From Dehalococcoidia bacterium (GTDB lineage Bacteria; Chloroflexota; Dehalococcoidia; UBA2979), in assembly GCA_965262725.1 (NCBI GenBank), contig OZ253555.1, positions 672,001 to 736,000 of the forward strand: a stretch of DNA of 64,000 nt, in the 5' to 3' direction. A program made the translations under genes and the position numbers. This document shows positions 11,873 through 35,246 of this stretch, piece by piece (position 1 is the stretch's first letter; each line of letters begins with the position of its first letter). The notes under the pieces were generated by a model. It saw nothing but the letters and a program-made list of their open reading frames with translations. It did no database searches and was not told the DNA's origin.

Positions 11873-11941
11873 GTTCACAGAAAGTTCCGGCTGCGTTCCA
11901 TGAGAGTTCCAAACGTTCCGGATTTCTTCCGGATTTGTTCC
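11873..11941 (-). promoter_or_regulatory. Phased GGAAC direct-repeat array upstream of the leftward primase operon
   Basis: GTTC(C/A) at 11873, 11884, 11895, 11906, 11915, (11926), 11937; spacing 11,11,11,9,11,11. Inverted homolog of 35167-35246. Confidence 0.75.
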
Positions 11942-12297
11942 TTTTCCGCCGTGCGGGGCCGATTGGCGCCGCCAGCCCCGTCCCGGAGGGCGCCGCGACT
12001 CCCGGGCTGCGGGAATGACCCGGAACGATGGGCACGGTGGCAGCCGCACGGCCGTGGACGCGGCTCGACCCCGGTCCAGGCTGGTCGCACGAGCGATCAG
12101 CCGCGTGCCGACGGTCCGCTACCTCAGCAGCGCATGGATTGAATCTGGCCACGCGACCGTCGGAACCTCTCCCGGGGCCCCTGCCTGTGGCCCACGCCGT
12201 CCGGTCAGGGCCGTGCGGACCCGCTTGGGCGCCCGCGCACGGGCCGGCCGCGGGCCGGCGGCTTCGCCCGGGCAGGCGACTCCGCCTTCGGGTCGCA

Positions 12298-12335
12298 GGA
12301 ACGCCCTGTGAACAAATCCGGAACAAATTAGGAGC
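12298..12335 (+). promoter_or_regulatory. Third, shorter 11-bp phased GGAAC array (divergent)
   Basis: GGAAC 12298, TGAAC 12309, GGAAC 12320, GGAGC 12331; shares GAACAAATCCGGAACAAAT with the 35.2 kb array. Confidence 0.6.
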
Positions 12336-12999
12336 GGATCTTTGTATTTTGTTTTCTTGAACGGGGTGTGCAGGTCGCGTTCTGGCTCGCTCACGGACGA
12401 TCCGTGCATCCCCACAGCGAGCAGCACGTCCCGGCAGTCGGCTCTGTCCTCAGTGGTAGTGATCCCGCCTCAGCAGACGTGCGGCTTCTTGCGAACTCAC
12501 GGGTGCTGGACGAGTTCACTGCTGGAGTCGGTACCGGTCGGTCGCATGGCGACTCCAGTCACGGGCATGCACGCTCGGCAGAGTGCCGTTCTCGAAGCGC
12601 CCACGGACGAGATGTCAGGAGTGGCGACGACCCTCGTCCTGCTGCGCGAGCGCACCCACGACGTCGTGGTACCGCTGGCCGAGCAGCGCCGCCGACCGAA
12701 GGCTCCGCAGGTGCGCACGACGCCGGCCTGCTCCCCCGAAAGGGGACGTGTTCGCGCGGTGTACGCCATCGCCGTAGCCCAGACCGCTGCCGGCAGCACC
12801 TGCCCGGCACGGCTCCACCGAAGGTCCGGTCCGACGTGGATGCGGGGAGATGCACAGAGGTGCCTCGCTGACTCTGGGATAATGATGTCTGACGGCCTTC
12901 CGCCCCTGACGCCGCTGATCGCCAGGAGTGGCGATCCGCCGGCCATACCGGGGCGGGCGCGCCGAGGAACCGCATTCCGGGACAAGAGGAGAGGATCTG

Positions 13000-13257
13000 A
13001 TGCCCACATTCACGAAGATGGACCCTGCTGATGTCGCCGTCGGCCGCGGGCGCGCCGCCGCGGAGATGCGGAAGCCCTACATCGAGGCGCTGAACGCGGG
13101 CGACGCGGGGAGCGTGGAGCTTGAGCGCGGCGAGAAGCCGGCGACCGTGAAGCGGCTGCTTCAGGAAGCGGCACGTCAGGCGAACGTCCGCATCCGCTGC
13201 TCGTGGGCGGACAGCCAGCAGCGCATGCTGGTGTGGAAGAAGGTTGGCACGCGCTGA
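13000..13257 (+). CDS. Small basic hypothetical protein (possible DNA-binding)
   Basis: GAGGAGAGG RBS; 85 aa MPTFTKMDP..WKKVGTR; -10-like GGGATAAT near 12877. Confidence 0.7.
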   Translation: MPTFTKMDPADVAVGRGRAAAEMRKPYIEALNAGDAGSVELERGEKPATVKRLLQEAARQANVRIRCSWADSQQRMLVWKKVGTR

Positions 13258-13633
13258 CGCGGCGCGCGCGGCACCGGAGGGGCTCCAGCGGATCCCGCCT
13301 CGCGGTCGGGACTCCGCCCCGACCTTGCCGCGCGGGGACGTTACGTACATTCCTCTTCACGGCGCTCGCCGGCACGACCGTCCGACGCCGTTGATCCAGG
13401 CCTATGCCCGGCCCAGTGGAGCGCGTGCAAGCGCGCTCGATGACTCGCGACCTGACGCCCCCCGGTGCGGCGCGCGCCGCTTCAGCACTTGGCGGGTCGG
13501 GGACGGTGCCGGGTGCGTTGCTCCGGCGGCCCACCGATCGTGCGGGCGGGGCACCGAAGGGATCGTGTTTCTGAGTGCCGCCCACGAAGAAGATGGCGAC
13601 CGCCCGGGAGGACGAGAACGGGGAGGCCGGAGG

Positions 13634-13837
13634 ATGACCGGGGCCTTCTTCGTCAACGAGGACAAGCCGACCGGCTCGGCGACGGTCCACCAGGCGGGGG
13701 GCCCCTGCCGTGTCCCCCAGCGGAAGCGGGCACGAGATGGGCAATGGCACGGCCCGTTTCGACTCAAGGAGGGGGCCCTGCGAGTTGCCCGTGACGTCGG
13801 CCGCGACGTCTACGAATGCCAGCGCTGTAACCCCTGA
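13634..13837 (+). CDS. Small Cys/His (putative Zn-binding) protein
   Basis: GGAGG RBS; VH..C..WHGPF..CQRC; homologous to the N-terminus of the 5396 recombinase. Confidence 0.7.
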   Translation: MTGAFFVNEDKPTGSATVHQAGGPCRVPQRKRARDGQWHGPFRLKEGALRVARDVGRDVYECQRCNP

Positions 13838-13974
13838 GGCCGCGTCCGCCGTCCTCCCGTGGGCGCGCCCGGGCGGGGTGCTCGGCTGCACATGGCGATT
13901 CGTCGTTCCCGCGGTTGCGTCCGTTGCTCTCGACACGACACGTCCGGTGGCAGGCAGACACGGGGACTGGCGGG

Positions 13975-14868
13975 TCAGCGGCCGGCCATCCGGTCGCCGC
14001 CGGCCGCCGCCACGTCGAAGGGCACATCGATCGTGACGGCCGGCCACAGTCCGATCGAACGGAGGTAGCCGACCACCCGACGCCAGGCCTCGTCGGCGCC
14101 GACGGTCAGCTGCATCATCGCGTTCTGCGGATTGGGAAAGTGCACACCGAACAGCTGGTTGATGAACGGCCGCGCAAACCCTGTCATCTGCGGCGCGCGG
14201 AAGGGTGTGCACGGCACGAACGAGAACGGTGCGGTCGTGATCTGATCGAGCATCCGCCCGTTGTACAGAACCCGGTGCCCGAACTCGACGGAGGCGTTGC
14301 CCCGCATGAGCGAGGTCTCTACGTAGAACCCGTCGATTGCGGCCTCGTCGGCGATGTCGCAGCCGCGACGGCTCATGCCGTACGGGAAGCGCTCCGCAAC
14401 GACGAAGGCGGTATCGAGCATGAAGTCGAACCCGGCCTCGCCCGCGCGGACCGAGCCGAAGAAGATGACATCCCCGTCATCGAGGTCCCGAAGTACCGGT
14501 CGCGCCTCCTGCCGGCAGATCGCGTACCGCATCTGCGACCCGAAGACCCACGGGTCCGTGTTCTGGGCACGCGGCGGTGGCTTTCCCGGTGTGACGAGGC
14601 GGTGTAGCTGCGTCGGTAGTCCTGACTCGCGGGCCGAGAGCGACGTGACGCTCGTCGGAGCTTCCCACTCGCCCCAGAACCCGATCGACTGCGCCGCGGG
14701 CCGGCGCATCCACCGGCCGTCGTCACCGACCGGGATCGCGAGTCGGGCGTCTGCGTTGATGAACTTGCGTGTGTGACCGCGACCCGTGTTCCAGGCGCAC
14801 CGATCATCCTGGAGGGAGCGTGCCGACGGCTCACCGCCGGGATGATTGAAGAGGATCGCGCGTCCCAT
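13975..14868 (-). CDS. Hypothetical protein with conserved-looking motifs (weak Nmad2-like resemblance)
   Basis: GGAGG RBS; HPGGE, WN.G.H.RKF, FWGEWE, NTDP.VFG, Y..C.Q, GDVIFFGS, F.LDT.FVV. Confidence 0.65.
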   Translation of the reverse strand: MGRAILFNHPGGEPSARSLQDDRCAWNTGRGHTRKFINADARLAIPVGDDGRWMRRPAAQSIGFWGEWEAPTSVTSLSARESGLPTQLHRLVTPGKPPPRAQNTDPWVFGSQMRYAICRQEARPVLRDLDDGDVIFFGSVRAGEAGFDFMLDTAFVVAERFPYGMSRRGCDIADEAAIDGFYVETSLMRGNASVEFGHRVLYNGRMLDQITTAPFSFVPCTPFRAPQMTGFARPFINQLFGVHFPNPQNAMMQLTVGADEAWRRVVGYLRSIGLWPAVTIDVPFDVAAAGGDRMAGR

Positions 14869-14919
14869 CTGCGGGCTCCCTCCGCGCCGTCCCGGGGAGT
14901 CTACGCCCGGTCCGGGGTC

Positions 14920-15745
14920 CCGCGCGCACGAGCCGAGCTCCTCGACGCTCCCGCCCTCGTAGAGGACGAGGCTGACGCCCGAGGCGATCTCTCCGCGCAG
15001 GCAGCCCGGCCAGGACTGCGCCGCCACGCCGTCGCGCGACGGGTCGGCCGTGGCCGGTCCGTCGCTCCGGGCGATCACGAGCGCCGTGGCCGGGACGCCC
15101 TCCGCGTACAGCTCGAGGGAGGAGCGGTTCACGAATTCCGGCGCCCCGAGGATGTAGGAGACGTAGGCGCCGCCCTCGAGCTCGTAGAGCGCCGTGACGT
15201 GCCGGCTCTCGGCGCAGCCGACCAGGTCGCCGACGCTTCCCCCCTCGTAGATTGAGGATGCTGAAGCCCACCGCCACGGCGCCCCGCAGGCAGTCCGGCG
15301 CCGGCCCCGCCTCCTCGAACCCGACGTGGTAGACGCGCGTGCGGCTGCCGTCCCCCGAGGTCACCCGTCACCGTGATCTCGCGGAGGTCCTCCAGGGCAA
15401 CCTGGTGGCCCTCCGCCTCCTCGTCGGCATCGGGCGGGTCGATGTCGACGTCGCCGAGGCGATGCAGCGCCTCGGCGGTGACGGTCGTCTCGCTCACGCC
15501 GTCGTCCGCTGCGCCCTCGTAGCCGGTGGTGCCGGGGTCGAACTCCCCGATGTCGACGTCGCTCAGCGTGAGCGAGCTGAGGCGAGCAATGGCGTCGGGC
15601 ATGTTGTAGGTGTAGACGCGATCGTCGCTCTCGACGGCGACGTACATCACGTCGCCGTCGGACCAGATGCCTCGCGGGCTGTTGTTGCTGGCCTTCTTCA
15701 GTTCCCTGGACTCTCCGAACTCCTCGTCGCGGACGCGCTCCAGCT
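14920..15745 (-). pseudogene. Fragment of a surface protein (propeller repeat, cadherin-like beta-sandwich, YEGGSV/GAP..VN domains), frameshifted
   Basis: PRGIWSDGDVMYV; LSSLTLS..F.PGTT.Y..ITVTVTS.DGS.TRVY; two YEGGSV..L..CA repeats across frame changes. Confidence 0.7.
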
Positions 15746-18460
15746 CCTGTGGGAGATCGCGCGGCGCTGCTACGGCGACGGCAGCCGCTTCGTCGAGATC
15801 TTCGAGGCGAGCCGCGGCCTGCCGATGGAGGGCGGCGAACACTTCAGCGACCCGCGGGTCATCCGGCCCGGCTGGGTGCTGCGCGTGCCGCTGCCCGCGC
15901 TCAACGTGGACGCCGGGGACGACGTCACGACCTACCGCGTGCGCCGCGGCGACCACCTCTGGGGGATCGCCGAGCGCTTCCTCGGCGACGGCTTCCGCTG
16001 GATCGAGATCTGGGAGCACAACAGCGGGCGGGAGGTGGACGCGGGCTCCCGGCTCACCGACCCGAACCAGATCCACCCGGGATGGCTGCTGGAGCTGCCG
16101 CTGCGGGACGGCGAGGCGGCGCTGCGGGCAGAGGCCCGGGCCCCGGCGGCACCCCCCGCGCCTCTCCCGGTGGAGAGCGCGGTCCGGCCGGCCTTCGCGG
16201 ACGCCATGGCTGGTGCTGCCACCCGCGCCGGCACCGTGGCCGCCGGGGACGCCGATGCAGACGCCGGCGTTGCGGATGGCGGTGGTGGCTGGGACTGGGA
16301 ATGGCCGCAGGTGCCGCGAACGGTCACCTGGAGCGCGGCGGGCTTCGCGGTGATCGGCGGCACGGCCATCTTCGTGCAGCGGCTGCACCGCGGAGGCCGG
16401 CTGCGGTTCCGCCCCGGCGGGGGCCGCGGCGGGGACGGTCCGGGCGACGCCGGGCGCGTGGCGCTCGCCACCGGTGCGCTCGGGACGGCGCTCGCGGACC
16501 TTGGCTTCGCTGGCTCGATGCCGCTGCTCGTGCTCGAAGGGGGCTCGGTGCTCGAGTTCACGGTGGCGTGCCCGCCCGGTGACGCCGGCGCCCTCCTCGC
16601 GGCGCGCCATGACCTCGAGCGCCGCCTCGGCTGCGATGTCGAGGCCGCGGCGCACGGCCCCACGCGCGTCGCACTGACGCTGGGTGCGTCCGGGCGGCCT
16701 CCGGGCGGGCTCGGCGAGGCACCGTACGCCTCGCCGGCGCTCGTGGTGCCGGTCGGCGCGACCGACGCGGGCGTCGTCTACCTCAACCTCGCGGCCGCGG
16801 GCAGCGTGACCGTGACCGGCCCGGCCGGGGAGCGGCGGGCACGGCTGCGCTCGTGGGTCGCGACGCTCCAGACGACCTGTAGCCCGGACCAGCTCTCATT
16901 CCGCGTGGACTCCGCCGCCGCCGGGCTGCTCGATGCGGATGAGGGTCTCCTCTACTTCGGCGACGCGGCCGGCGCCCATGGCGCCGCGGACCTGGCGGAC
17001 GAACTGGATGAGATCATCCAGAGCCGGAACTCGGGTCATGGGATGAGCCGGCCGCTCGTCGCCGTCTTCGATCTGACCGGAAGCGGCGACGATGTGCCGG
17101 CCGGAGCGATGCGCCACGGGCCGGCGGCCGGGTCATCGTGATCCGCTGCCTGCCGCCGGGCGAATCCGCGGATCCGCTCACGGACTCCGGAGGGCTGGTC
17201 GCCTTCCGCGGGGCGGGAGACGGAGCGGACGGAGACGCGGACGCAGTCCCGCCCGGTGCGATCGTCCTGAGGATCGGCCGGGACGGGCCGCTGCTGCTCG
17301 AGCGGTGCACGTGCGGCGGGACACGTCGGCCAGGTGGAGCGAGAGCGCGGACCCGGCCGCGCTGACAGACGTGCTCGACCGGATGGCCGGGGATCTGCCA
17401 CCTCCACGGGAGGCGGACGTGAGCACCTCGGCCGACGGACGACCACGGACCGGCGCCGCTCGCGAGGGCGATGCCGAAGGTGTGGGCGCCGCCCTCGCGC
17501 ACCCGGTGATGCCCCGCGACCCGCTCGCCGCGTTCGCGGCGGACGACGGCGTCGGGGACCAGGACGCGGCCTGTGCACCCGTCCAGCCGGACGGCGAGGC
17601 CGAGCCGGATCCTCCCGGGCCCGTGGAGCCTGCGGTCGGGCACGATACCGGGTGCGAGGACGGGTGCGCGTGGCCAGCCGTCCCCGCGGAGCAGGCTGAA
17701 GAGGATGTCTCGCCGCAGGCCGGTGAGGCGCCCGACGAAGCGATCCTCTCCGGCGAAGCCCTGCGGGCCGAGGGCCCGGTGACGCCGCCGGAGCCGCAAC
17801 CGGTGGCGGCGCCGGGCGGTGTCAGCCAGCCCGCGGCCGCGATCCGCCAGTCGGCGCTGCTCACGCACGACGGCCTCCCCGCGGCGGCGGTGGATGCCCC
17901 GACCGCCGCGCAGGCGGTCTTCACGGTGCGGTCTTCGAGCTGCAGCTCGGAACCACGACCGTCGCGGGCTGGCCCATAGCGAAGTCCCGCGAACTGCTGG
18001 CGTTCCTCGCCACGCATGGCGGAACGCCCGTGCCACGCGAGTTCGTCGCCGAGGCGCTGTGGCCGGACCTACCCCTGGGATGCGAGCCTCCGGCACACCA
18101 TCGCGAATGCCGTGAGCAGCCTGCGGGGAGTCGTGCGGTCCGCGGCAGGCAGCGATGAACTTGCAGCCGGTGGTCACCGCCCGCCAGCGATACCAGCTCC
18201 AGACCGCTCTCTTCCGCATCGACCTCGACGAATTCGAGTCCGCGCTCAGGCGCGCGGCCGTGCTCCCCGATGTGGACGCGCTTGCCGAGTACGAGCGCGC
18301 CGCGGCGCTCTGCCGGGGAGACTTGATCGAGGGAGAGCCGTTCCCGTGGCTCGACGCCTGCCGGGCCGACTACCGCCGGCGAGCGGCCGAAGGGGCGAGC
18401 CGCGGCGCGGTGATCGCCGCACGGCTCGGGGAGCGGGAGCGGGCTGCGCTTCTCTACGGG
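15746..18460 (+). pseudogene. LysM-LysM-TM-linker-wHTH/BTAD membrane-anchored SARP-like regulator (5'-truncated, several frameshifts), copy 2
   Basis: Two LysM domains (LWEIA..YGDG; YRVRRGDHLWGIAERFLGDG..IHPGW.L.LP), TM WSAAGFAVIGGTAIFV, then KSRELLAFLA..EALWP and IDLDEFE..BTAD. Confidence 0.75.
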
Positions 18461-19512
18461 GGAGGCATGGGAGGCGCAGCGGGAGGCGGGCGAGGGAGGA
18501 ACTCCCGAATCCGCCGACCGCTAGTTCGTTCTATGCGCTCGCTTCCCAACGGATCATGTCCGCCTCGTGGGGGCGTGGCGACCGGCGGAGGAACGGTCCC
18601 CTGAGGAACGCGGGTGACCAGCATGCCCGCTCCGCACTGATCGCGAATGACGCCGGGCACGACCTGTGGCGCCCGTGGGGCGCGGTCGAGCGGGTCGCCC
18701 ACGGGGTCACCAACCGCAGGGCGTGGTGATGGGCTCGCGAGCGTCGGACGCCTCCACCGCGTGATCCTCACGCACGAGCCGACCGGCGAGGCGGCGGCGC
18801 GCGGGCTGGTGTGCCAGCTCGAGGCTACGGGGCGGGGCACGGCGACGACCTTCACCGGGCCGGCGCGCCGAAACGGGATCGCTGAGCGCAATCCTAGCGA
18901 ATAGGCTGCGATCAGCCCCGAGCATAGCTTCTTCCTGAGAATCGTTACCGAACTGCCACTAGAAGGGGGCCGATTGTCCACTGAACGTTCATAGCTAGTT
19001 GGTACGCTGCCATGAATGGACCCCGTGCTCCGGGAGGCATTGACGTGGCGCTCGACAGACCAGTCCATGCACCTGAGATGGTGGGCGGAACGACGGCCCG
19101 TGCCGTCGCTCTGGGGTCTCCTGTGCAGGGCGACCTAGCACATACCCCCCTCCCCCCACTTCTGTATCGCCCATGCTTCATCGCGCTTCCTCCTGCATCC
19201 CGTCCCGCCGGGCCGTGCTTCGACGCGGCTCGTGCCGCTTGCGATCGTCGCCGGCCTCACGGGCCGTTCGCGGCGGTGGGCGCGGGCAACGCCGACCGGG
19301 CGGAACACCCCGCGGGTTCTCACTGACCACTCGCCCCCTGCGCCCGCACGGTCCGGTGCCGGCACCGAGGGAGCACGCGTGACCATGCGGGAACGGCCAC
19401 CGGTCGGCTACGCGGTCCCTGACTCACGGGCAGCACCGTCGCACGTCCCGGTCGGGGCGATGCCGACAGCGCGCCGTGCCACTTGGCACGTCGGTGGGGG
19501 AATGGCGGACCG

Positions 19513-22179
19513 GTGAACAGACGCGATCTCTGGTGGCTCGGTCTCGCGGTCGTCGCCGGCCTGGCGGTGGGGATGGTCATCCGCCAGACGTACGAGCCGT
19601 TCGCGGCGGTGGCGTCCCATCTGGACGCCGCCGGGACACTGCCCCCGATCGTGGCTCAGGGTACGACGTCTTCGGCGATTCGGGCCGCGGAGCGGGCGCT
19701 GTGCGTGAGCGGCTCGGCGGTGGGCGCGGGCAACGAGGGTCTGCTCGACGACTGCGCGGTGCTGCTTCAGGCGAGGGACACGCTGCGCGGCACGGCGACG
19801 CTCAACTGGAGCGCCGACACCGCGATCGCGGACTGGACTGGCATCGCCCTATCCGGGACGCCGCAGCGCGTGACGGAACTGACGCCGACGTACGCCGGTC
19901 TCAACGGCAGCATCCCGCCCGTGTTGGGCAGTCTCCCCGGGCTGGAGGACCTGCAACTCTCCAACAATGCGCTGACGGGCTCGATTCCCGCGGAGCTGGG
20001 CTCGCTGAGTGAGCTGGACATCCTCTACCTCCACAACAACCAGCTTGAGGGCGCGATTCCCGCGGAGCTGGGGAACCTCGCGAAGCTGCGATTCCTGGGC
20101 CTGCGCAACAACCAGCTCACGGGCACGATCCCGGCCGCGTTCGCCAGCCTGTGGGAACTGCAGGACCTCTACCTCAACAACAACCAGCTCACGGGCGCGA
20201 TTCCGGCCCTGCTGGGCGACCTCGACCTGCGCATCCTCTACGTGGCGGGCAACAGCGGGCTCACGGGCTGCATCCCTGCGGCGCTGAGCAGCGTCACCTT
20301 CAGCGACCTCGCGACGCTGAGCCTGGAGGATTGTGAGGCGGAGCCCACGCACACGCTGACGACATCGAGGACCGGCATCGGCAGCATCTCTCCGGCGCCG
20401 GGCGCGCACAGCCACCGCAGCGGGGCGCTCGTGCGCGTGGAGGTGACTCCGGGAGACGGGTATCGCGTGGCGTCGTGGGGCGGCGACTGCAGCGGAAACG
20501 GCCGGGCGACGGAGTGCATCCTCACGCTGGACGCCGCCAGGACGGCGAGCGTGACCTTTGAGGCGGGAGAGCCCATCGCGACGTACACGCTGACGACGTC
20601 GGCGGGGTCGAACGGGAGCATCTCGCCCGCAGCGGGCACGCACATCTACGACGAAGACACGAGCGTGACGGTGACGGCGGCGCCGGGGGAAGGCTACCGC
20701 GTGGGGGCCTGGGGCGGCGACTGCAGCGGCGCGGCCCTGACCTGCGTGCTGACGATGGACGCGGACAAGACGGCGAGCGTGACCTTCGAGCGGACGGCGC
20801 ACACGCTCACGACCTCGGCGGGAGCGAACGGGAGCATCTCGCCCGCGGCGGGCTCGCACAGCTACGACGAGGACACGAGCGTCACCATCACGGCGACGCC
20901 GGATGAGGGCTACGGCGTCGACTCGTGGGGTGGCGACTGCAGCGGCACGGCCCTGACGTGCGTGCTGACGATGGACGCGGACAAGGCCGCGCGCGTCGTG
21001 TTCGCGCCGTCGGGTGCGGTCTGCACAACCGCCACGGACGCGACCTGCGTCCGGGCCGTCTACACCGGCGCGCCGGGCGACTACAGCTCCATCGCGGACA
21101 TCCCCGCGGACGCGCTCATCACGCCGGACGCGGCCGGCCGCTACCACGTGGAGCGGGGCGAGCAGGTGACGGTCATCACGGCCGCCACGGTGCCCACGGG
21201 CTACACGCGCTTCTACCTGCAGTGGCGGCCTGAGGGGACCCCCCCGCCGACCTCGTTCACGCGGCTGATCCCCCCCGTGGGGACGACGTACACGTTCACG
21301 CCGACGGAGGACGAGGCCGGGTCGACGCTGATCACGTTCGACCTGACGGCGGCGCGGCCGCGGCCGCTCTCAATCGGCGACAAGCCCGAGCTGGGGGACG
21401 TGGTGGCGACGACCGTCTTCCAGGTGGTCTCGTGTGGGTCGGGTGTCGCCGTGCCTGCTCCGACGACGAACGGGGAACTGGTCGGGGACTGCGAACAACT
21501 CTTGGCGCTCCGGGACACGCTGGAGGGCGCGGCAGCGCTGAACTGGAGCGCGAGGAGGGCCATGACGAGTTGGGCCGGCGTGACGATGTCGGGCACGCCC
21601 CGGCACGTGACGGAGCTGGAGCTGGCGAACAGCGGGTTGACGGGCGAGCTAACGGGCCTGCTGGGCACGCTCACGGCGCTGACGGAGCTGCGGCTCGATG
21701 GGAACGCCCTCACGGGCATGGTCCCGTCGAAGCTTGGCCAGTTGGCGGACCTGACGCATGTCTACCTGGCCGGGAACAACCTGACGGGCTGCGTGCCGAC
21801 GTCGCTGAGGGCGGTGGCGAACAACGACATCCCCCTGTTGAACTTGGCAGACTGCGGCGCGCCGGCCGACGTTTCCGACCGAACGCGAGGGGATCCGCTC
21901 CCGGTCGGCACCTACCAGTTCGACTTTTCCTCTCAGCACGGACCTCTTGTGTTCGACATCCCACCTGGTGCCAGCGTGGAGTTGGATTACTTGGTCGTCA
22001 GCGAGCCACAGGAAGGGACTGGCGATTCCACTGAGGGTCTCCTTCTGCAAGACGAAGCCACAAAATCTTGGGTCTGTCTCGATCTAGTACGGGCCATCGA
22101 ATGTAATCGATGGGTGAGCGGTCAGAGTGTAGACGTGACCTTTGACCGTATCATCGAATCGCTCTGGGTAGCTGAGTAG
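19513..22179 (+). CDS. Secreted/anchored LRR plus InlB B-repeat surface protein
   Basis: N-terminal TM; plant-type LRRs (LxLxNNxLTGxIPxxLG); three ~72-aa repeats (LTTSAG.NGSISP..WGGDCSG..C.LTMD..KTASVTF); second LRR block. Confidence 0.9.
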   Translation: MNRRDLWWLGLAVVAGLAVGMVIRQTYEPFAAVASHLDAAGTLPPIVAQGTTSSAIRAAERALCVSGSAVGAGNEGLLDDCAVLLQARDTLRGTATLNWSADTAIADWTGIALSGTPQRVTELTPTYAGLNGSIPPVLGSLPGLEDLQLSNNALTGSIPAELGSLSELDILYLHNNQLEGAIPAELGNLAKLRFLGLRNNQLTGTIPAAFASLWELQDLYLNNNQLTGAIPALLGDLDLRILYVAGNSGLTGCIPAALSSVTFSDLATLSLEDCEAEPTHTLTTSRTGIGSISPAPGAHSHRSGALVRVEVTPGDGYRVASWGGDCSGNGRATECILTLDAARTASVTFEAGEPIATYTLTTSAGSNGSISPAAGTHIYDEDTSVTVTAAPGEGYRVGAWGGDCSGAALTCVLTMDADKTASVTFERTAHTLTTSAGANGSISPAAGSHSYDEDTSVTITATPDEGYGVDSWGGDCSGTALTCVLTMDADKAARVVFAPSGAVCTTATDATCVRAVYTGAPGDYSSIADIPADALITPDAAGRYHVERGEQVTVITAATVPTGYTRFYLQWRPEGTPPPTSFTRLIPPVGTTYTFTPTEDEAGSTLITFDLTAARPRPLSIGDKPELGDVVATTVFQVVSCGSGVAVPAPTTNGELVGDCEQLLALRDTLEGAAALNWSARRAMTSWAGVTMSGTPRHVTELELANSGLTGELTGLLGTLTALTELRLDGNALTGMVPSKLGQLADLTHVYLAGNNLTGCVPTSLRAVANNDIPLLNLADCGAPADVSDRTRGDPLPVGTYQFDFSSQHGPLVFDIPPGASVELDYLVVSEPQEGTGDSTEGLLLQDEATKSWVCLDLVRAIECNRWVSGQSVDVTFDRIIESLWVAE

Positions 22180-23645: not shown

Positions 23646-23702
23646 CGACGCCGCTGGGGCGACAATCGCTTCGGGCAGGCCGATGCGCCCGTGGGCCTCT
23701 AG

Positions 23703-25095: not shown

Positions 25096-25260
25096 CTAGG
25101 CGGCGATCAGCGCCAGCCCGGAGTGCACCTGCGCTCTCGCACGTCGGCGATGTCGTGTGTTGGGGGGAAACGCGGTACGGGAAGGAGTTGTTGATTCTCC
25201 CGTAAGCGGGGCGAAGGCCGCTCGCATATTCGGGCCGAGAGCTGAGCAGAAGGCGGATTC

Positions 25261-25614
25261 ATGGAGATCGACTTTGGCGTATGGAACGCCGTGGCGGCGG
25301 ACGGCCGGCCTTATCCTGACCCCCTCACGCTGGCCGAGCAGCGCGTGCTGGAGGAACTGCGCAAGGGTGGAACGAACGGCGAGATCGCTGAGCGACTGGG
25401 GCTCGCCCCGGAGACGGTCCAGACTCACGTTGCGAGAATGCTCTCGAAGCTCGATCTCGACACCCGCCGACAGCTCACCGCGTGGCAACCCGAGCGACCC
25501 GGAGTCCGAAGACGGGTGCGCTCCCTGCTCGCGCCGCTGGCGTTCTGGATGCCCGGGTCTACAGTCAGCCAATACTTGGGGCGGCGTTGCCGCGTCGCGG
25601 GAGAAGTGCGATGA
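25261..25614 (+). CDS. LuxR C-terminal HTH regulator
   Basis: LT.AEQRVL..L.KG.TN.EIAERLG...ETV.THV..ML.KL; ATGA overlap with the next gene. Confidence 0.85.
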   Translation: MEIDFGVWNAVAADGRPYPDPLTLAEQRVLEELRKGGTNGEIAERLGLAPETVQTHVARMLSKLDLDTRRQLTAWQPERPGVRRRVRSLLAPLAFWMPGSTVSQYLGRRCRVAGEVR

Positions 25615-26849
25615 GAGTACGGCATCGAGGTCTCGGGGTTGCGGCTCTGGTGCTGACGCTGGTCGTGGGGGCTGCCTGTGGGTCGGCTACCCCTCAGCCG
25701 TCGCCGGTAGGCACGGCTCCACTGGCACCTGCCGCTCTGTCTAGCCCCAGCGCCGAGCCCACGGCGACTGCCGAGCCCACGGCGACCGCCGAGCCCACGG
25801 CGACTGCCGAGCCCACGGCGACCGCGACACCCACGGCGACTGCCGAGCCCACGGCGACCGCGACACCCACGGCGACCGCCGAGCCCACGGCGACCGCGAC
25901 ACCCACGGCGACTGCGGAGCCCACGGCGACTGCGGAGCCCACGGCGACCGCGACACCCACGGCGACTGCGGAGCCCACGGCGACTGCGGAGCCCACGGCG
26001 ACTGCGGAGCCCACGGCGACTGCGACACCCACTCCGACCACACCTGTCCAGGTTGCGTCGTGCGCGTCAGGGATCGCGGTCCCGAATCCGACCACGAACG
26101 AGCAACTCGTGGGGGAATGCGCCCATCTGCTAGCGCTCAGGGACACACTCGCGGGAACAAGGACGCTCAACTGGAGCACCACGAGGGATATGGCAAGCTG
26201 GACCGGCGTGACGGTGGAGGGGACGCCCCGACGGGTGGTGAAACTGGATCTGGCGAATAGCGGGTTGACGGGCGAACTCTCGGGCCTGCTGGGCACGCTC
26301 ACCTCGCTAACGGAACTGCGGCTGGACGGGAACGCCCTCACGGGCCGGATCCCGTCGAAGGTCATCAGGTTGACGCGCCTGACGGATGCCTACCTGGCCA
26401 GCAACAACCTGACTGGCTGTGTGCCGCCGTCGCTCCGGCTAGTGGGGAACAACGACATGCCCTCCCTCGGCCTGGGGGACTGCGACGCACCAACAGACGT
26501 CTCCGACCGAACTCGAGGGGATCCGCTCCCGGTCGGCACCTATCAATACAAGGCGTCATCGCGGCACGTGCCTCTTGTATTCGATATCCCGCCCGGAGCC
26601 AGCATGGCGTTGGATGACCTTGTGGCCACCGAGCCAGAGGAAGGGACCGGATACTCCACTCAGGGTCTCCTTCTGCAAGACGAAGCCACACAATCCTGGC
26701 TGTGCCTCGACCTACTCCGCGCAATCGAATGCAATCGGTGGGTGCTGCAGACGGGTCAGGGTCCGGCGTTATCGGGCGAGCCTAGTCTCGATGTGATCTT
26801 TGACCGCATCGTCGAATCCCTATGGTTGGCCGAGCGGAGCGAAGGGTGA
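25611..26849 (+). CDS. Lipoprotein with Pro/Thr/Ala stalk and LRR domain (paralog of the C-terminal part of 19513-22179)
   Basis: Lipobox VGAAC; PTATAE repeats; LDLANSGLTGELSGLLG..LDGNALTG; shared C-domain ending FDRI.ESLW. Confidence 0.85.
   Translation: MRVRHRGLGVAALVLTLVVGAACGSATPQPSPVGTAPLAPAALSSPSAEPTATAEPTATAEPTATAEPTATATPTATAEPTATATPTATAEPTATATPTATAEPTATAEPTATATPTATAEPTATAEPTATAEPTATATPTPTTPVQVASCASGIAVPNPTTNEQLVGECAHLLALRDTLAGTRTLNWSTTRDMASWTGVTVEGTPRRVVKLDLANSGLTGELSGLLGTLTSLTELRLDGNALTGRIPSKVIRLTRLTDAYLASNNLTGCVPPSLRLVGNNDMPSLGLGDCDAPTDVSDRTRGDPLPVGTYQYKASSRHVPLVFDIPPGASMALDDLVATEPEEGTGYSTQGLLLQDEATQSWLCLDLLRAIECNRWVLQTGQGPALSGEPSLDVIFDRIVESLWLAERSEG
25752..26030 (+). repeat. 18-bp coding minisatellite (PTATAE/PTATAT)
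   Basis: About 15 units of CCCACGGCGAC(T/C)GC(C/G)(GAG/ACA). Confidence 0.9.
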
Positions 26850-26896: not shown

Positions 26897-27300
26897 TACG
26901 ACAGCGGTGCGTCGGTGACGGTAACGGCGAGGCCGAACGCCAACTAGGCCATCGCCTCCTGGGGCGGGAACTGCAGCGGCACGTCCTCCACGAGCAGCAC
27001 GTGCACGCTCACGATGAGCGGTAACCGCAGCGCGAGCGTCGGCTTCGCGCGGGTGCCGGTCACGTACACGCTGAGCACGTCGGTGAGGCCGTCGGGAATC
27101 GGGTCGATCAGCGTCAGCCCGGCGGGGCCGTACGGTCCGGGGACAAGCGTGAGCGCATCGGCCACATCGAACTATCCGGACTATCGATTCTCCCACTGGG
27201 TGGGTCCGGGATCGGGCGTCTCGCCGCGGACCATCACGATGAACGGGCACTACAGTCTGACGGCCGTCTTCGTGCCGATCACCGAGTGCACGCCGGGCGT
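26897..27300 (+). pseudogene. Second copy of the InlB-repeat C-terminus (near-identical to ~23185-23590)
   Basis: Near-identical DNA; in-frame TAG near 26945 (AAC TAG GCC versus AAC TAC GCC). Confidence 0.8.
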
Positions 27301-27805
27301 GGAGCAGGTGGAGCTGCCCCCGGAGCGGCGGCGGCGGGTCGTGGTGCTGGTCGACGAGTCGAGCACGCTCGCGGCGGTCGACTACAGCCGGATGCTCTCC
27401 GAGCCTGGGAAGTAGGGAGCGAGCTTCGTGCTGGTCACGCAGGGCCTGGCGAAGCTCGATGCCGTCGACCGGTCGCTGGCGCCGACGATCTTCTCGAACA
27501 TCGACGGCCTCACCGTCTTCCAGGTCAGCGCCGAGGACGCCCGCCGGCTGGCGCCGGAACTCGGGGGCGACCTCGAGGTCGAGGACTTGACCGGCCTCGA
27601 CGATTTCGCGTGCTACGCGCGTTGGTGGGACGGCGCCGCGCGGCCGGCCGCGTTCTCGTTCCGCGTGGACCCGCCGGCCGCGGTGGCGGCGGAGCGGGTG
27701 CGCGCGGTGGCGGGACGCTCGGCGCTGCGCTTCGGCCGGCCGCGAGAGACCGTCGCAGCCGAGGTCGCGCTCGCTCTTGAGGCCACGGGCTCGCCCGCGC
27801 CGTGA
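27301..27805 (+). pseudogene. C-terminal fragment of a VirD4-like coupling protein
   Basis: VLVDESSTL..DY.RMLSE.GK*GASFVLVTQ matches 43.7-44.2 kb; in-frame TAG at 27413. Confidence 0.85.
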
Positions 27806-28052: not shown

Positions 28053-28370
28053 TCAGAGCCGCCACGCGGGCGACTCGCCGTCGTTGAGGGCGACGAGCGC
28101 GTCGCGCACGGGCTCAGGGAGGCTCTCCCAGGGCGGCAGTGTGTAGCCGTCGAACTCGGCGACGGGCACCCACTCCTCCGGCGCGACCTCCTTCTCGATC
28201 GCTTCGATCCCGTAGTTGTGCAGCCCCCAGATCTGGGTACGGCAGCGGTAGGGGCCAGCCGCCTCGATGGCGGCGGCGACCTCGTCGGTGAAGTTGGGTC
28301 CGTCCCCGTCGTCGAAGCCGAACTTCGAGAACGCGTCGGTGATCTCCCAGCAGATGATCCGTCGTGGCAT
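28053..28370 (-). CDS. Small acidic hypothetical protein
   Basis: GAGGGAG RBS; W..TDAFSKFGFDDGDG..WGLHN; 105 aa. Confidence 0.7.
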   Translation of the reverse strand: MPRRIICWEITDAFSKFGFDDGDGPNFTDEVAAAIEAAGPYRCRTQIWGLHNYGIEAIEKEVAPEEWVPVAEFDGYTLPPWESLPEPVRDALVALNDGESPAWRL

Positions 28371-28394
28371 CAGGTTCTCCCTCTCTCGGTGCTG

Positions 28395-29654
28395 CAGAGG
28401 TGCTCGGCCGGATGGCCGGGGATCCTCCGCCTCCCCGGGAGGCGGAGGCGCGCACCCCGGCCGGCGGACGGCCGCGGACCGGCGACGATCGCGGGGGCGA
28501 TGCCGCCGGTGTGGGCGCCACCCTCGCGCACCCGGTCGTGCCCCCGGTCGTGCCCCACGACCCGCCCGGGTTCGCAGCACGCGGCGGCGGCGGGCGAGAC
28601 GCCGTGTCCTCTGCGCCCGTCCGACCGGGCGGCGAGCCGGATCTGGATCTGGATCCGGATCTGCCCGAGCCCGTGCCCGCGGCCCCGCAGGATGCCGGGT
28701 GCGAGGACGGTCGGGTGCGGTCGGCGGCCCCCCCGGAGCCGCCCGGCGGGGCGGCCGCGGGCGCGATCCTCTCCGGCGGATCCCCGCAGGCACACGGCCC
28801 GGCGCCGGCGATCCGCCAGTCGGCGCTGCTCACTCACACCGACCTCTCCCCGGCGGCGGCGGATGGCCCGCCCGCCGCGCAGGCGGTCTTCACGGTGCGG
28901 TGCCTCGGCCCCTTCGAGCTGCGGCTCGGAGCCACCCCCGTCGCGAGCTGGCCCGTCACGAAGTCCCGCGAGCTGCTGGCGTTCCTCGCCACGCAGGGCG
29001 GAAGGCCCGTGCCGCGCGAGTCCGTCGCCGAGGCGCTGTGGCCGGACTACCTCTGGGACGCGAGCCTCCGGCACACGATCGCGAATGCCGTGAGCAGCCT
29101 GCGGGGAGTCGTGCGGTCCGCGGCAGGCAGCGATGAACTTGCAGCCGGTGGTCACCGCCCGCCAGCGATACCAGCTCCAGACCGCCCTCTTCCGCATCGA
29201 CCTCGACGAATTCGAGTCCGCGCTCAGGCGCGCGGCCGTGCTCCCCGATGTGGACGCGCTTGCCGAGTACGAGCGCGCCGCGGCGCTCTGCCGGGGAGAC
29301 TTCCTCGAGGGGGAGCCGTTCCCGTGGCTCGACGCCTACCGGGCCGACTACCGCCGGCGAGTGTCCGACGGGGCGAGCCGCGGCGCAGCGGTCGCCGAAC
29401 GGCTCGGGGAGCGGGAGCGGGCGTCGCTCCTCTACCGGGTGGTCCTGGAGCAGGAGCCGACCGACGAGGCGGCCGCGCGGGGACTGATGCGCCATCTCGC
29501 GGCGGCCCGGGACGCCAACGGGGTCCGCAAGGTCTTCAAGGTGCTGTCCGAGGCGTTGAAACGGGAGCTGGACGACCCGCAGGCGGCGCCCGGGCAGGAG
29601 ACGCGGGAGCTGCTCGCCGCGCTCCTGGCCCGGGAGCCGGGAGCGGTGGTGTGA
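28395..29654 (+). pseudogene. wHTH-BTAD regulator C-terminal half, copy 3 (frame change at ~29137)
   Basis: VRCLGPFEL..KSRELLAFLA..VAEALWP..SSLR, then LQPVVTARQRYQL..BTAD in another frame. Confidence 0.8.
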
Positions 29655-30208
29655 CGGGGCGCATCGCCGGCGTGCGCCCCGCTTGGCTGGTGAGGGACCG
29701 GGAGCCGCGGGCAGCGTACCCGGCGCTCGCGGGAGCGGCTCTCGTGGTCGGGGCGATCCTCGCGCTGCGCGGGCGGGAGCCGGCGGAGATCGTCCTGGGT
29801 TCGGGCTTCGGTGTCTGCTTCCTGGCGCTGGCCTGGTCGGACCTCCGGCGCCGCGTCATCCCGAACCGGCTCGTCTACCCGGCGCTGGTCCTGGCGATCG
29901 CCGTCTCCGGCGCCTGGCCCGACCGCGGGGTGGTCGAGGCGCTCACGGGCGGGCTCGGCGCGCTTGTCGTCGCGATCGCCATCCGCGGACTGAGCGGGGG
30001 CGGCCTCGGCGGCGGGGACGTGAAGATGGTTGCGCTTGTTGGGGCGGTCGTGGGCTACCCGGGCGTGCTGTCGGCCGGATTCTGGGCCGCGCTCGCGGGA
30101 GGCGTGACGGCCGCGGCGCTGCTGGTCACGCGGCGAGCCGGCCGCGGTGACCGCGTGCCCTACGGGCCGTGCATCGCGCTCGGCGCGGTTGCGGCGCTGC
30201 TGGGCTGA
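29651..30208 (+). CDS. Prepilin peptidase, A24 family (copy 2)
   Basis: SDLRRRVIPN, GLGGGDVKM, PYGP; GTGA overlap with the BTAD gene. Confidence 0.85.
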   Translation: MTGRIAGVRPAWLVRDREPRAAYPALAGAALVVGAILALRGREPAEIVLGSGFGVCFLALAWSDLRRRVIPNRLVYPALVLAIAVSGAWPDRGVVEALTGGLGALVVAIAIRGLSGGGLGGGDVKMVALVGAVVGYPGVLSAGFWAALAGGVTAAALLVTRRAGRGDRVPYGPCIALGAVAALLG

Positions 30209-31372: not shown

Positions 31373-31449
31373 TGGAGGCCCCGGCGGGATTCGAACCCGC
31401 GTCTCGCGATTTTCAGTCGCGTGTCTTGCCCAGACTTGACTACGGGGCC
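31373..31449 (-). tRNA. tRNA with GAA (Phe) anticodon on a Cys-like scaffold
   Basis: GGCCCCG/CGGGGCC acceptor, GTC/GAC D stem, CGCGA-CTGAAAA-TCGCG anticodon arm, GCGGG-TTCGAAT-CCCGC T arm, U73 and encoded CCA. Confidence 0.9.
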
Positions 31450-31578
31450 TCTGATGCACGCAGCGGCGCGGTTGAATCCGACCGCTGCTCGGGCTACGAT
31501 GGGGGCCGCGAGGCACTCCATCGTGAACCGAAGAAGCGGCCCCGCCCGGCAAGGCGGGGTCGCTTCACGTCTGGGGCC

Positions 31579-31614: not shown

Positions 31615-31655
31615 GTGTGCTGCGGGTGGCGGGATCTGCTGCGGGCGATACAGAC

Positions 31656-33250: not shown

Positions 33251-33401
33251 GCACTACACTAGATACAGCCATCAGGCTCTCTTCACACTCTGTTAGTGGC
33301 TTGACGTGCTGATCGTAGACACGATGAAACCTCACACACAAGGGAAGACTGGGGAGGCCACCGCTCGCACGGAGTGGTAGCCTCCCCCCTGGCAGTGGAG
33401 C

Positions 33402-33690
33402 CTAGCGGTCTGCCCCGGCCGGCTCTGCCTCCCGCTCCAGCGCCCACTCGAGGAGCGAGATGGACGCGGGCTCGGGCATGCGGCTGCGGCGCTTCGGGTT
33501 GACCGGATCCTCGGCCATGAACTCCGCCCACGAGAACAGTGTCCGCTGCGCCTCGCGGGCATTGGCGCCACGGCCGCCCTCGCCGACCGTGGCGACCTCC
33601 TCCGCCATCGGCTCCGGAGCAGCCCATCCCGCGTCCACCAGTAGCGCCTCGGCTTCCGCCGCGACCGGCTGCGCTGAACACCTGCGCCCG
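33402..33690 (-). pseudogene. C-terminal remnant of a large element-borne protein (possibly helicase-like)
   Basis: QRTLFSWAEFM motif shared with 34943-35090; no N-terminus. Confidence 0.45.
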
Positions 33691-33949
33691 ACCCAATCTT
33701 GAGCACTTCCGTGGGGACCAACTCTGGCGCGTGCCTGCCATCGTCGACGGGCAGTAGCTACGGCCTCAGGTTCAACTTGCCGAGGAGCGCCTCAACCGTC
33801 ATGGCGTTCTTTGGTATGAACTTTCTCGCACCGTCGGCTGGATCCTCACGTTTGATGAAGTAACGATCGAAGGCCCGGACATCACTCGTCTTGCCTGTCC
33901 TGTATGACTCGTACAACCATCGGATTAGAGCGCGAAGCCGCCGCCAGTG

Positions 33950-34939
33950 CGCCGCGCCGTTGCGCCTGGGGCAGCTCGCCCTGCTCGCGGATGACGGCGT
34001 CCGTGAGGTTGAGGCCGGAGGCACCCACGAGCGCGGCGACGTCCTTCCCGGCCGCGCCCTGCGCGGTGGAGACGAGCAGCACGCCCCGTCGAGGATCGTG
34101 CGCCTGAGGTCGATAGTGGAGCGGGGCTGGCCGAGGATGGCGCGCGCCCGCTTCGAGGAGGCGTAGTAGGAGAGCCGCGTCTGGACGGGGGCGAGGGCGT
34201 CGGCGCGGTACTCGCGGCGCCGGCCCTTGAAGTCGCGCTCCCACCAGTCCAGCAGGAACTCGTCGCTCACCCGCTTCAGCACCAGCGTGCGGAAGCGGTC
34301 GTCGGAGAGCAGGCGCAGCCCGTCGAGGATCGTGCACTGCTCCTCGGCGGCGGTGGCGGGATGGGCGTTGTGCTCGTGCCGGGTCTTCACGACCTGCTCG
34401 AGGATCGACTGCATGCGCGGCCCCCACTGCTCCCAGATCCCCTTCGCCACGCGCACGACCGAGTCGGCGGTGCGGTCGCGGTCGCTGAAGACGCGCGTGT
34501 CGAGCAGGTTGATGCCGGGGTAGCCGCGCTCGCCCGCGAGGTCGAGGAGGCGGACCTGCCCCGCCAGCGACTCGGGGACCTGCTGGAGGATGTCGGCGAC
34601 GAGGTCGGCGTGGGGGTCGACGACGACGATCGCGTCGCCGTCGCGGCCCGCCGCCTTCTCGCGCAGCCTGTGCGCGACGAGGTGCTGCATGAGCGTGGAC
34701 TTGCCCATGCGCGTGCGCGCGACGTAGAGGTGGTGGCGGCGCAGCAGGTCGTCGGGGAAGCGGATCTCCCGCGGCGCGCCCGCCGTCGTCTGGCCGACGA
34801 GCGCCCCGCCGCTTACGTCCCTCGCCTGGGGGACGTGCACCCGCGCCCCGGACCGCGCCACGAGCGGCGTCTCGTCCTTCGCGCCGGGCGGGTGCCAGAG
34901 CGCCGCGGCCTCGCGCACGCCGAGCACGCGCAGGCCCAC
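33950..34939 (-). pseudogene. Central fragment of a second VirD4-like paralog
   Basis: HHLYVARTRMGKST, VVDPHADL, WGPRM, ARAILGQPRSTID; truncated at both ends and frameshifted. Confidence 0.85.
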
Positions 34940-34942
34940 CGC

Positions 34943-35090
34943 CTACGGGGACGAGGTCGACGACCTGATGCTGGCGCTCGCCGGGAAGATCGTCGCCGGC
35001 GGGGAGGACGCCGCCTCGGTCGAGTCGGTCTTCGCCCGGGCCCCGGGCCGGCAGCGGTCTCTGTTCTCCTGGGCGGAGTTCATGTGGGCA
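34943..35090 (+). pseudogene. Second C-terminal remnant of the same large protein family
   Basis: YGDEVDDLMLALAGKIV..VESVFA..QRSLFSWAEFM. Confidence 0.45.
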
Positions 35091-35166
35091 TGTGGGCGTC
35101 GCCCCATGTGTCCGCAGCATGCGGAAACGCCGCCCGGACCCGCGTTGAGCCGATTCTGGCGTGTTC

Positions 35167-35246
35167 GGAACGAATCCGGAACAAATCCGGAACAAATCCG
35201 GAACGTTTGGAACTCTCGTGGAACGAATCCGGAACTTTCTGTGAAC
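35167..35246 (+). promoter_or_regulatory. Eight phased GGAAC direct repeats upstream of the conjugation operon
   Basis: GGAAC at 35167, 35178, 35189, 35200, 35209, 35220, 35231 and TGAAC at 35242 (spacing 11,11,11,9,11,11,11). Confidence 0.8.

Follow-up and report, generated by a model that had tools for sequence, protein, structure and literature searches.

Phased repeat arrays with SARP-like geometry at the conjugation promoters of a Chloroflexota element family

The DNA analysed here is a stretch of 64,000 nucleotides (the window) from a Dehalococcoidia bacterium, part of one 3.67-Mb contig (OZ253555.1) with 70.6% G+C, and it carries a rearranged copy of an integrative and conjugative element (ICE). 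Arrays of short direct repeats lie ahead of both the primase-side operon and the type IV secretion system (T4SS) operon of this element. It is very probable that the arrays are real, lie close to promoters and define an element-specific regulon. Judged from their geometry, they are likely to be activator sites of a SARP-type protein, in which a winged helix is followed by a BTAD domain. Sites of this kind are known; what is new is their presence on the conjugation genes of an undescribed family of Chloroflexota ICEs. The cognate binder is proposed, with a probability of roughly 0.55, to be a large membrane protein of the element in which LysM domains are combined with a C-terminal SARP domain, hereafter the LysM-membrane SARP protein.

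Repeat arrays and promoter anatomy

Three arrays, designated PA, PB and P3, are present in the window (Table 1). Read from 11941 to 11873, PA consists of the units GGAAC, GGAAG, GGAAC, GGAAC, GGAAC, GGAAC and GTGAAC, and PB comprises seven GGAAC units followed by GTGAAC. In both, the spacing is 11 bp with a single 9-bp step in the middle of the array (GGAACGTTTGGAAC), and comparison of the window with itself by blastn aligned 11852-11941 with 35267-35178 at 87.8% identity over 90 nt. Each of the two is located upstream of its own operon and in the same orientation, with the ATG of the TrbL-like gene at 35307, 60 nt beyond PB, and the start of an open reading frame (ORF) preceded by GGAGG approximately 190 nt beyond PA. 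The shorter array, P3, is composed of AGGAAC, GTGAAC, CGGAAC and AGGAGC. The pattern GGAACN6GGAAC, with at most one mismatch, was matched 19 times in the window compared with 3.32 ± 1.83 times in 100 dinucleotide-preserving shuffles of it, none of which gave 19 matches, and 14 of the 19 fell inside PA, PB and P3. In the whole genome the three-unit pattern occurred 15 times, and the reversed control pattern was absent. A first-pass annotation of this DNA had described two long arrays upstream of, and co-oriented with, the primase and conjugation operons, together with a third, short one. All three can be read directly from the letters, the short one with its four units, and they lie far above chance.

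The arrays keep a fixed register to a putative -10 box. Downstream of PA, the hexamer TANNNT was observed in 14 of 14 lineages (TAGCCT in nine, TAGCGT in two, TAGGCT in two and TACCGT in one), and the last repeat core was located 9 nt from it in 13 of the 14 promoters, the distance being 10 nt in G038c1 (G numbers are our handles for relatives). Beyond PB, a hexamer CA[CG][CGT]CT, or GACGCT in G062, was found 8-10 nt past the last core in 12 PB regions, and this CACGCT-type hexamer retains the A and T of a -10 box. TAGCCC, 14 nt past the PB array, was also considered as the -10 box of PB and was dropped, being unconserved across lineages, unlike CACGCT at 9 nt. The putative -10 box of P3 is less conserved than those of PA and PB. 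Measured to the -10 box, the repeat ends of PA in the window fall at 9, 20, 31, 42, 51, 62 and 73 nt. The same ladder of distances is present in PA and PB. In G016 it runs 9, 20, 31, 42, then 51, 62 (71/73, 82/84), and, shifted by the offset of the counted 5-mer, it recurs in own lineages 1 and 2 (the two lineages of the element in the window's genome), G083a, G094c1 and G001. The layout is thus four proximal units at 11-bp phase, a 9-bp step and two to four distal units, the second proximal unit overlapping the -35 position. No sigma-70 -35/-10 pair was found in 11500-12700, around PA and P3. In relatives, arrays were located by anchoring on the conserved -10 box and leader, since k-mer enrichment was swamped by coding repeats.

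This layout can be compared with that of characterised SARP sites. According to PMC10936776, their direct repeats are spaced by 11 or 22 bp and 8 bp separate the 3' repeat from the -10 box, AfsR occupying the place where sigma region 4 would contact the -35 box. A hexamer at 9 nt is the same as a heptamer at 8 nt, and therefore the array geometry is the same as in the SARP rule. At the level of sequence, the features of a SARP target promoter are found in the register of 13 of 14 PA promoters, in the 9/20/31/42 ladder and in the putative -10 boxes. The earlier suggestion of site geometry typical of SARP/OmpR-type winged helix-turn-helix (wHTH) proteins is accordingly borne out by the 11-bp phasing, the register and the promoter-proximal position.

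P3 aims into approximately 600 nt (12336-12930) without a convincing ORF. An ORF of 85-109 aa at 12928-13254 is conserved, with 78% amino acid identity in G083a. In compact elements (L049:2124-2480), P3 faces the 3' ends of a 461-aa ORF and of the gene for a small SARP, both on the opposite strand. The product of P3 may be a long leader, a small RNA or an antisense transcript. A search of 11000-14000 against Rfam gave one sub-threshold match, npcTB_6715, at 17 bits against a gathering score of 72.

The repeat word varies between elements and is shared by the promoters of each element. An array stands before TrbL in 16 of 21 close loci, which is every assessable one, the other five ending at a contig edge or beginning inside the gene. 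The word is GGAAC in own lineage 1 and G016, CGGAAC in G086, AGGAAC/AGAAC in G001, G[G/T]GAC in own lineage 2, TGGACC in G083a, TGGAC in G018 and TTGGAC/TTGGTGC in G062. It is GGGAG/GGGGA in G083b, G083c, G094c1 and G088, CTGGAT in G094c4, G039 and contig 87 of G012, TAAGCG together with GTGGA in G094c6 and contig 35 of G038, and AGTCGC/GGGCG in G038c1. The primase-side array carries the same word as the T4SS-side array of the same element, and the word of P3 also matches in the elements looked at, namely own lineage 2, G016 and G094c1. Co-variation was tested over 12 elements in which PA and PB are on one contig or are the sole copies in their genome. PA and PB of one element were mutual best 5-mer matches in all 12, in both directions. 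The mean 5-mer cosine was 0.535 for matched and 0.099 for mismatched pairs, and none of 100,000 permutations attained the value of the matched pairs. The 12 elements are related and so do not amount to 12 independent events; at least nine distinct words were distinguished by eye. That one word is common to all promoters of an element points to an element-specific trans factor and regulon, and the proposal of an array-defined regulon of a conjugative element gains from this co-variation of the core across promoters in nine or more repeat types.

Copies of the arrays elsewhere in the genome were sought as at least three GGAAC within 24 bp. The scan gave 26 clusters, comprising 12 arrays of the PA/PB kind, 12 in an unrelated 1.9-kb repeat and 2 others. 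Seven of the 12 arrays are PB arrays before a TrbL-like gene, four are PA arrays on the primase side and one is truncated. When the 12 were aligned with their flanks, it could be observed that a core of 70-80 bp is kept while the three flank contexts are unrelated. The twelfth array, at genome 3772-3858 (+), has the third flank type, with CAGGCT at 9 nt and then a copy of an insertion sequence (IS), and is probably a truncated promoter. BLAST of the window showed both operons to be multi-copy in the genome at 91-96% identity, the remoter copies of approximately 75% constituting lineage 2. The arrays mark an ICE regulon, as had been anticipated, but with 12 of them in the genome they are not tied to a single ICE copy.

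The protein that may read the repeats

An intact homologue of the LysM-membrane SARP protein, 1316 aa in length, is encoded at genome 436882-440832. From the N-terminus onwards, it consists of membrane helices, then LysM domains, a long linker rich in proline and, at the C-terminus, the SARP domain. Pfam reported LysM, BTAD at 1165-1308 with 25.8 bits (cut-off 22.1) and, short of the gathering score, Trans_reg_C at 1087-1141 (E 5e-4), and phmmer matched the SARP part to EmbR with E 2e-5. An AF2 (AlphaFold2) model of the C-terminal SARP domain, with a pLDDT of 89.6, was compared with known structures by Foldseek. The SARP domain of AfsR (8hvr_I) was recovered with E 3e-10 and TM scores of 0.64/0.68 over 265 columns, together with EmbR and 8k60; the best structural matches overall had E ~1e-10 and TM 0.62-0.68 over ~260 columns. 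An OmpR-type winged helix followed by an all-helical BTAD domain is therefore predicted for the C-terminal 255 residues. The N-terminal position usual for a SARP domain is not observed, as here it forms the last 255 residues of a protein of 1139-1316 aa. A profile search of the PDB with the SARP domain, intended to place the base-contacting residues of AfsR on the recognition helix, reached EmbR, and AfsR was not reached by sequence; a match of helix position 12 to R92 of AfsR is conceivable. In a plasmid collection searched with the same domain, one distant match was obtained, from Skermanella at 31.6%. Hydropathy of the 1316-aa copy gave three strong membrane helices, at 21-39, 79-97 and 390-408, and 4-6 Lys/Arg residues follow the last helix in three homologues. 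By the positive-inside rule, the C-terminal part is thus predicted to be cytoplasmic and the LysM region outside. The linker is built of tandem 27-residue (81-bp) repeats (GATPSSGSPPEHGPATTPEPQP...; L046:12400-12900, own genome ~439400-439900), and its length varies among copies, the open frames being 1185, 1196 and 1322 aa.

The evidence that best discriminates in favour of this protein as the cognate binder comes from a comparison, with own lineage 1 as the reference, in which backbone and regulator disagree. G083a is its closest backbone relative, yet the arrays of G083a read TGGACC, and nucleotide similarity between the two ends exactly at the array. G016 is remoter in its backbone and has the same GGAAC word. 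In G083a, the identity is 90% for TadA, 85% for TrbL, 82% for the coupling protein, 81% for VirB4 and 81% for the 328-aa protein (modA), compared with 55% for the whole LysM-membrane SARP protein (residues 1-736), which makes it the least conserved core protein of this pair. In G016, TadA is at 85%, TrbL at 75% and modA at 73%. Within the large protein, the N-terminal part is 63% identical in G083a and 56% in G016, the wHTH 60% and 74%, and the BTAD domain 55% and 74%, so that these two domains are at their most similar in G016. In this comparison, the N-terminal part tracks the backbone and the C-terminal SARP part the repeat word. The TGGAC-type elements of three genomes share a recognition-helix signature, SN..(T/S)(T/M)LRSTLR, in domains that are just 52% identical where compared (G083a vs G062), and the three exact GGAAC-type elements have LRG in common. 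Copies of the large protein and of TrbL also match in number, being 3:3 in G083, 3:3 in G094, 2:2 in G001, 2:2 in G038 and 1:1 in G016, G018, G062, G086, G012, G098, G096 and G039.

Several results weigh against the LysM-membrane SARP protein as binder. Mantel tests of array similarity against identity over 12 elements, carried out for the large protein's helix, wHTH, BTAD domain and N-terminal part and for the small SARP, modA and TadA, were all non-significant (r -0.12 to 0.17; best BTAD, p 0.075), and in partial Mantel tests neither the large nor the small SARP stood out against the other; power was low because the majority of array pairs have nothing in common, and the outcome decides neither for nor against any of the candidates. 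In the comparison of own lineage 1 with G083a, the large protein is followed in low conservation by the small SARP (63%) and the relaxase (68%). G086 keeps GGAAC with a wHTH that is 48% identical, and the helices of G083b and G094c1 differ although both elements have GGGAG. The C-terminus of the large protein was not found, profile search included, in four genomes with TrbL or primase-side genes, namely G082, G084, G022 and G002. PA arrays are present in G082 and G084, which are 73% and 85% complete in 280-290 contigs, the array region of G022 is unassembled, and G002 (10 contigs) retains a T4SS remnant with an "array" of mixed words. The latter fits decay after loss of the factor, as a single case. 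Furthermore, the three helices taken at face value place LysM and SARP on opposite, wrong sides, and the topology with LysM outside and SARP inside presupposes a fourth helix, a weak one, somewhere from residue 100 to residue 180. A membrane-tethered factor would also need to reach 12 chromosomal arrays. The first-pass idea of a LysM-TM-BTAD protein as master activator is therefore retained in part: the SARP fold, the 1:1 copy numbers and the highest divergence agree with it, but small SARP paralogues and the null correlation test do not favour it.

The arrays could act by the same mechanism with a different binder, namely the small SARP of approximately 255 aa divergent from the tad operon, or a paralogue of it, the LysM-membrane SARP protein then controlling other genes such as tad. 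This is a possible account, though a distinctly less probable one. A small BTAD protein is encoded in every compact element looked at, with the classical size of a small SARP and an N-terminus read from sequence as an OmpR-type winged helix (Pfam reported none). Also in its favour are its divergence between own lineage 1 and G083a, where just one core protein is less conserved, and its solubility, which would put many chromosomal sites within reach. However, its sequence tracks the backbone, since the protein of own lineage 1 is nearer to that of G083a (69% in the wHTH part) than to that of G016 (56%), which also has GGAAC. Its helix begins SLRTA in G094c4, G094c6, G094c1 and G062, where four different words are present. 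The intergenic region between its gene and tad contains another motif, GTTGCA/TGCAAC (by eye), common to G016 and G038, the arrays of which differ. The small SARP is moreover wider in distribution than the element (31 vs 20 genomes), and no gene for it is present in the window.

An element protein outside the SARP family, such as the relaxase through its HTH, a primase-side protein or a repressor of partition or KorB type, might instead bind the arrays as repression sites, a centromere or part of an oriT or origin. R388-type plasmids use iteron-like direct repeats for the global repressors StbA and ArdK; the relaxase, with an N-terminal MarR-like HTH (helix-turn-helix), is the third least conserved protein (68%) between elements with different words, and P3 is followed by a short AT-rich stretch at 12340-12358. 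Such a role is nevertheless unlikely, because an origin or oriT is expected once per element and in no fixed -10 register, whereas each element has three transcription-oriented arrays, locked 9 nt from a conserved -10 box and with repeats in the -35 region. The iteron/oriT alternative raised at first is a poor fit for the same reason. The scanned ORFs gave no match to a ParB/KorB-type or ribbon-helix-helix family, and several of them matched no family whatsoever. A host response regulator of the OmpR/PhoB class, by which conjugation would be linked to host physiology, is barely credible as the binder. PhoB-type sites are 11-bp phased, and GTTCAC, the reverse complement of the last unit, resembles actinobacterial PHO-box units. 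However, all 12 GGAAC arrays of the window's genome sit in copies of element promoters, and the word differs among co-resident elements and lineages while the core promoter is constant, which a single host factor cannot explain. Co-resident words are GGAAC and GkGAC in the window's genome, TGGACC and GGGAG in G083, and GGGAG, CTGGAT and TAAGCG/GTGGA in G094; their presence in one genome speaks decisively against a host factor and fits an element-encoded, word-specific one. The other alternative initially named, a LexA/Cheo-type SOS box, does not fit, as such boxes are inverted repeats (GAAC-N4-GTTC type) and all units here are direct repeats on one strand.

With the LysM-membrane SARP protein as the preferred binder, the following mechanism is proposed. 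PA, P3 and PB would be activator-dependent promoters of an ICE that combines a T4SS with a Tad pilus, in which the -10 box is retained and a ladder of hexamer repeats takes the place of a -35 box. An element-encoded SARP, with its winged helix and BTAD domain, would occupy the repeats as adjacent protomers along a single helical face and, presumably activating rather than repressing, recruit RNA polymerase by replacing the -35 contact, like AfsR. Leading-region genes (primase, ArdC-like) and the mating apparatus, relaxase and integrase would thereby be switched on jointly. Among the paralogues, the cognate protein would be the membrane SARP from the end of the tad operon, and the lineage's own repeat word would insulate co-resident elements from one another. 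More tentatively, and with the LysM signal itself presumed, the extracellular LysM region may report wall or mating contact to the DNA and fire transfer through the three promoters, helix and word having diversified into at least nine orthogonal pairs.

Gene content, order and distribution of the element

The canonical gene order was taken from an intact copy elsewhere in the genome and from compact copies in two relatives. The leftward primase-side operon is followed by PA and the divergent P3 and by the small BTAD protein (~255 aa), then by a complete tad/Flp pilus operon (CpaB, TadZ, TadA, TadB/C, TadE, TadE, TadG). After tad come a secreted protein, the LysM/Trans_reg_C/BTAD protein of 1139-1316 aa, an A24 prepilin peptidase, and PB with the T4SS operon. 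In G016 (contig 9, L049:8631-8690), a fourth GGAAC array of six units, spaced 11, 9, 11, 11 and 11, is located within the tad operon, where it separates the genes of TadA and TadB; the window's genome is without one there. The features of the window copy are collected in Table 1.

Table 1. Coordinates of arrays, promoter elements and genes in the window
Feature	Position	Strand	Remarks
PA operon	8207..11674	minus	cut by IS110 insertion at ~8116
PA leader motif AGTGCGTTTCGCC	11832..11844	minus	~15 nt past -10; in nearly all lineages
PA -10, putative (TAGCCT)	11858..11863	minus	9 nt past last repeat
PA array	11873..11941	minus	seven direct repeats, ahead of primase/ArdC-side operon
P3 array	12298..12335	plus	four repeats, divergent from PA
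P3 -10, putative (TATTTT)	12345..12350	plus	9 nt past last repeat AGGAGC
Regulator gene, broken copy 1	15339..18461	plus	frameshifted; similarity stops at 18461 within BTAD
Regulator gene, C-terminal copy 2	28364..30205	plus	within 28364-29654, wHTH (~28823-29143) and BTAD (29133-29651) in different frames
tRNA-Phe	31373..31449	minus	between regulator/peptidase module and PB
PB array	35167..35246	plus	eight direct repeats, ahead of T4SS operon
PB -10, putative (CACCCT; CACGCT in most lineages)	35256..35261	plus	9 nt past last repeat
PB operon	35307..47750	plus	TrbL/VirB6-like, then small membrane ORFs (Pfam)
VirB4-like ATPase	38891-40807	plus	Pfam P-loop_TraG/AAA_10
Second DnaG-type primase	40426-41868	plus	Pfam
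Coupling protein	41852-44407	plus	Pfam TraG-D_C/TrwB
Replic_Relax relaxase with N-terminal HTH	44271-46322	plus	Pfam
Tyrosine recombinase	46611-47750	plus	Pfam Phage_integrase

The PB operon contains, by Pfam, the set expected of a T4SS-type ICE block, with VirB4, coupling protein, TrbL_4, relaxase and integrase. The first ORF of the PA operon is split in the window (11674-11378, 11492-10725) and is an intact 322 aa in another copy; a 328-aa ORF (10725-9742) and a DnaG-type primase (9673-8207) follow, and other copies of the operon go on with an ORF whose N-terminus was read as ArdC-like, with no family match. The two DnaG-type primases, one in each array-controlled operon, are ~72% identical in a 174-nt core. 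No NCBIfam or Pfam family was obtained for the primase-side ORFs, the 85-109 aa ORF past P3 or a 346-aa protein upstream of PB. Directly past the integrase, a 1339-aa ORF (48113-52129, +) has an N-terminal MqsA/XRE-type HTH and a weak AAA_16 match, and one copy of it at 92% is found elsewhere (genome 1042509-1046554).

Compared with the canonical order, the window copy is rearranged, lacking the tad operon and the small BTAD gene. As in other copies, an A24 prepilin peptidase comes next after regulator copy 2. Both regulator copies in the window are broken, and therefore its element would rely on a regulator encoded at another locus; outside the window, the genome has three large genes that are intact and have the same recognition helix. 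The position of tRNA-Phe likewise indicates a rearranged or composite copy, since the 20 kb ahead of PB contained no tRNA in any of the other copies scanned (10 of 10). Either the element consists of two separable modules, one with the T4SS and one with tad and the regulator, or the window may hold two abutting remnants. A tRNA fragment was also observed in G092, at the end of a contig (L022) and approximately 30 bp ahead of the PB array. The usual place of the tad operon is occupied by cargo ORFs with LRR (leucine-rich repeat) and InlB B-repeat (Flg_new_2) domains, at 19483-22176, 22863-23642, 25482-26846 and 27014-27412 (+), which contain internal and mutual duplications (22822-23114 = 23041-23333 at 100%).

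The genome is rich in repeats, and copies of IS are also found within the window's element. An IS21-type pair (IstB and a Mu-type transposase) occurs in at least 15 copies at 98-100%, an rve/Mu-type IS in approximately 20 copies and a DDE_Tnp_1 IS in at least 10 copies at 99-100%, in addition to the 1.9-kb repeat with the unrelated GGAAC cluster (12 times) and many reverse-transcriptase (group II intron-like) copies. Repeats in the window are located at 23699-25099, 52357-54995, 56897-59500, 60579-62422 and 62425-64000.

Distribution was assessed in a sample of 99 related genomes. Any match to the TrbL-like protein was found in 29 of them, and close relatives of it (58-100% identity), which define the element family, in 20. 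The 328-aa primase-side protein was present in 18, the C-terminus of the large protein in 15 and the small BTAD protein in 31. In a species-level genome collection, the relatives of the large-protein C-terminus were metagenome-assembled genomes of Dehalococcoidia/Chloroflexota. The window resembles actinobacterial DNA because of its high G+C, but is not of actinobacterial origin.

Wider reading and comparison with known systems

If the proposed mechanism is true, these elements would form a natural set of insulated activator/promoter pairs, and several related ICEs could be harboured by one Chloroflexota cell without cross-activation. The co-variation would in this way explain the coexistence of related elements in one genome, as here with 12 arrays of one type and a second type. 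Should the LysM-membrane SARP protein be the binder, SARP biology would reach beyond actinomycete antibiotic clusters and gain a membrane-tethered architecture, and a ready panel of orthogonal activator/promoter pairs would be available. The wiring given by the sequences is testable, consisting of three promoters, one repeat code per lineage and few candidate activators. Control of conjugation is known in few ICE families, and full-text word searches of one literature library found no case in Chloroflexota. These searches, which covered LysM, BTAD and Tad together, SARPs in conjugative elements, and LysM-BTAD activators of the membrane, gave a Cutibacterium plasmid as the only relevant case.

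Networks in which one element protein acts through phased short direct repeats at several transfer or maintenance promoters are represented by StbA, ArdK and KorA of R388 and by omega of pSM19035. Those proteins are repressors on promoters with their own -35 box, whereas here the repeats replace the -35 box in a SARP register. ToxR, TcpP and CadC are membrane-tethered proteins with an OmpR-type winged helix, an extracytoplasmic sensing part and direct-repeat promoter sites. Their winged helix is N-terminal and without BTAD, while in the candidate protein it is C-terminal, after a linker of ~650 residues, and accompanied by BTAD. The closest likeness in domain content is an ORF annotated "LysM, BTAD" (PAGK_2369) on the Cutibacterium acnes plasmid pIMPLE-HL096PA1. 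There too, the domain pair is encoded by the gene that closes a Tad/Flp pilus locus of a mobile element. In a table of PMC3666418, this ORF has an annotation line only (called TadB), and no function is proposed.

The closest likeness in the sites is to Streptomyces SARP promoters. With those of AfsR (afs box), ActII-ORF4 and DnrI, as presented in PMC10936776, the arrays share 11-bp direct repeats on one helical face, a 3' repeat 8-9 nt from the -10 box and repeats that fill the -35 region. The candidate binder likewise consists of a winged helix and BTAD, with AfsR and EmbR as its best structural matches. The arrays differ in having 7-8 units with a conserved 9-bp step, compared with 2-3 units in Streptomyces, and in their setting, the conjugation genes of an ICE in a Chloroflexota host rather than the antibiotic clusters of actinomycetes. 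Finally, the SARP domain is N-terminal in the Streptomyces proteins, whereas the candidate binder is a large LysM membrane protein that has this domain at its C-terminal end.

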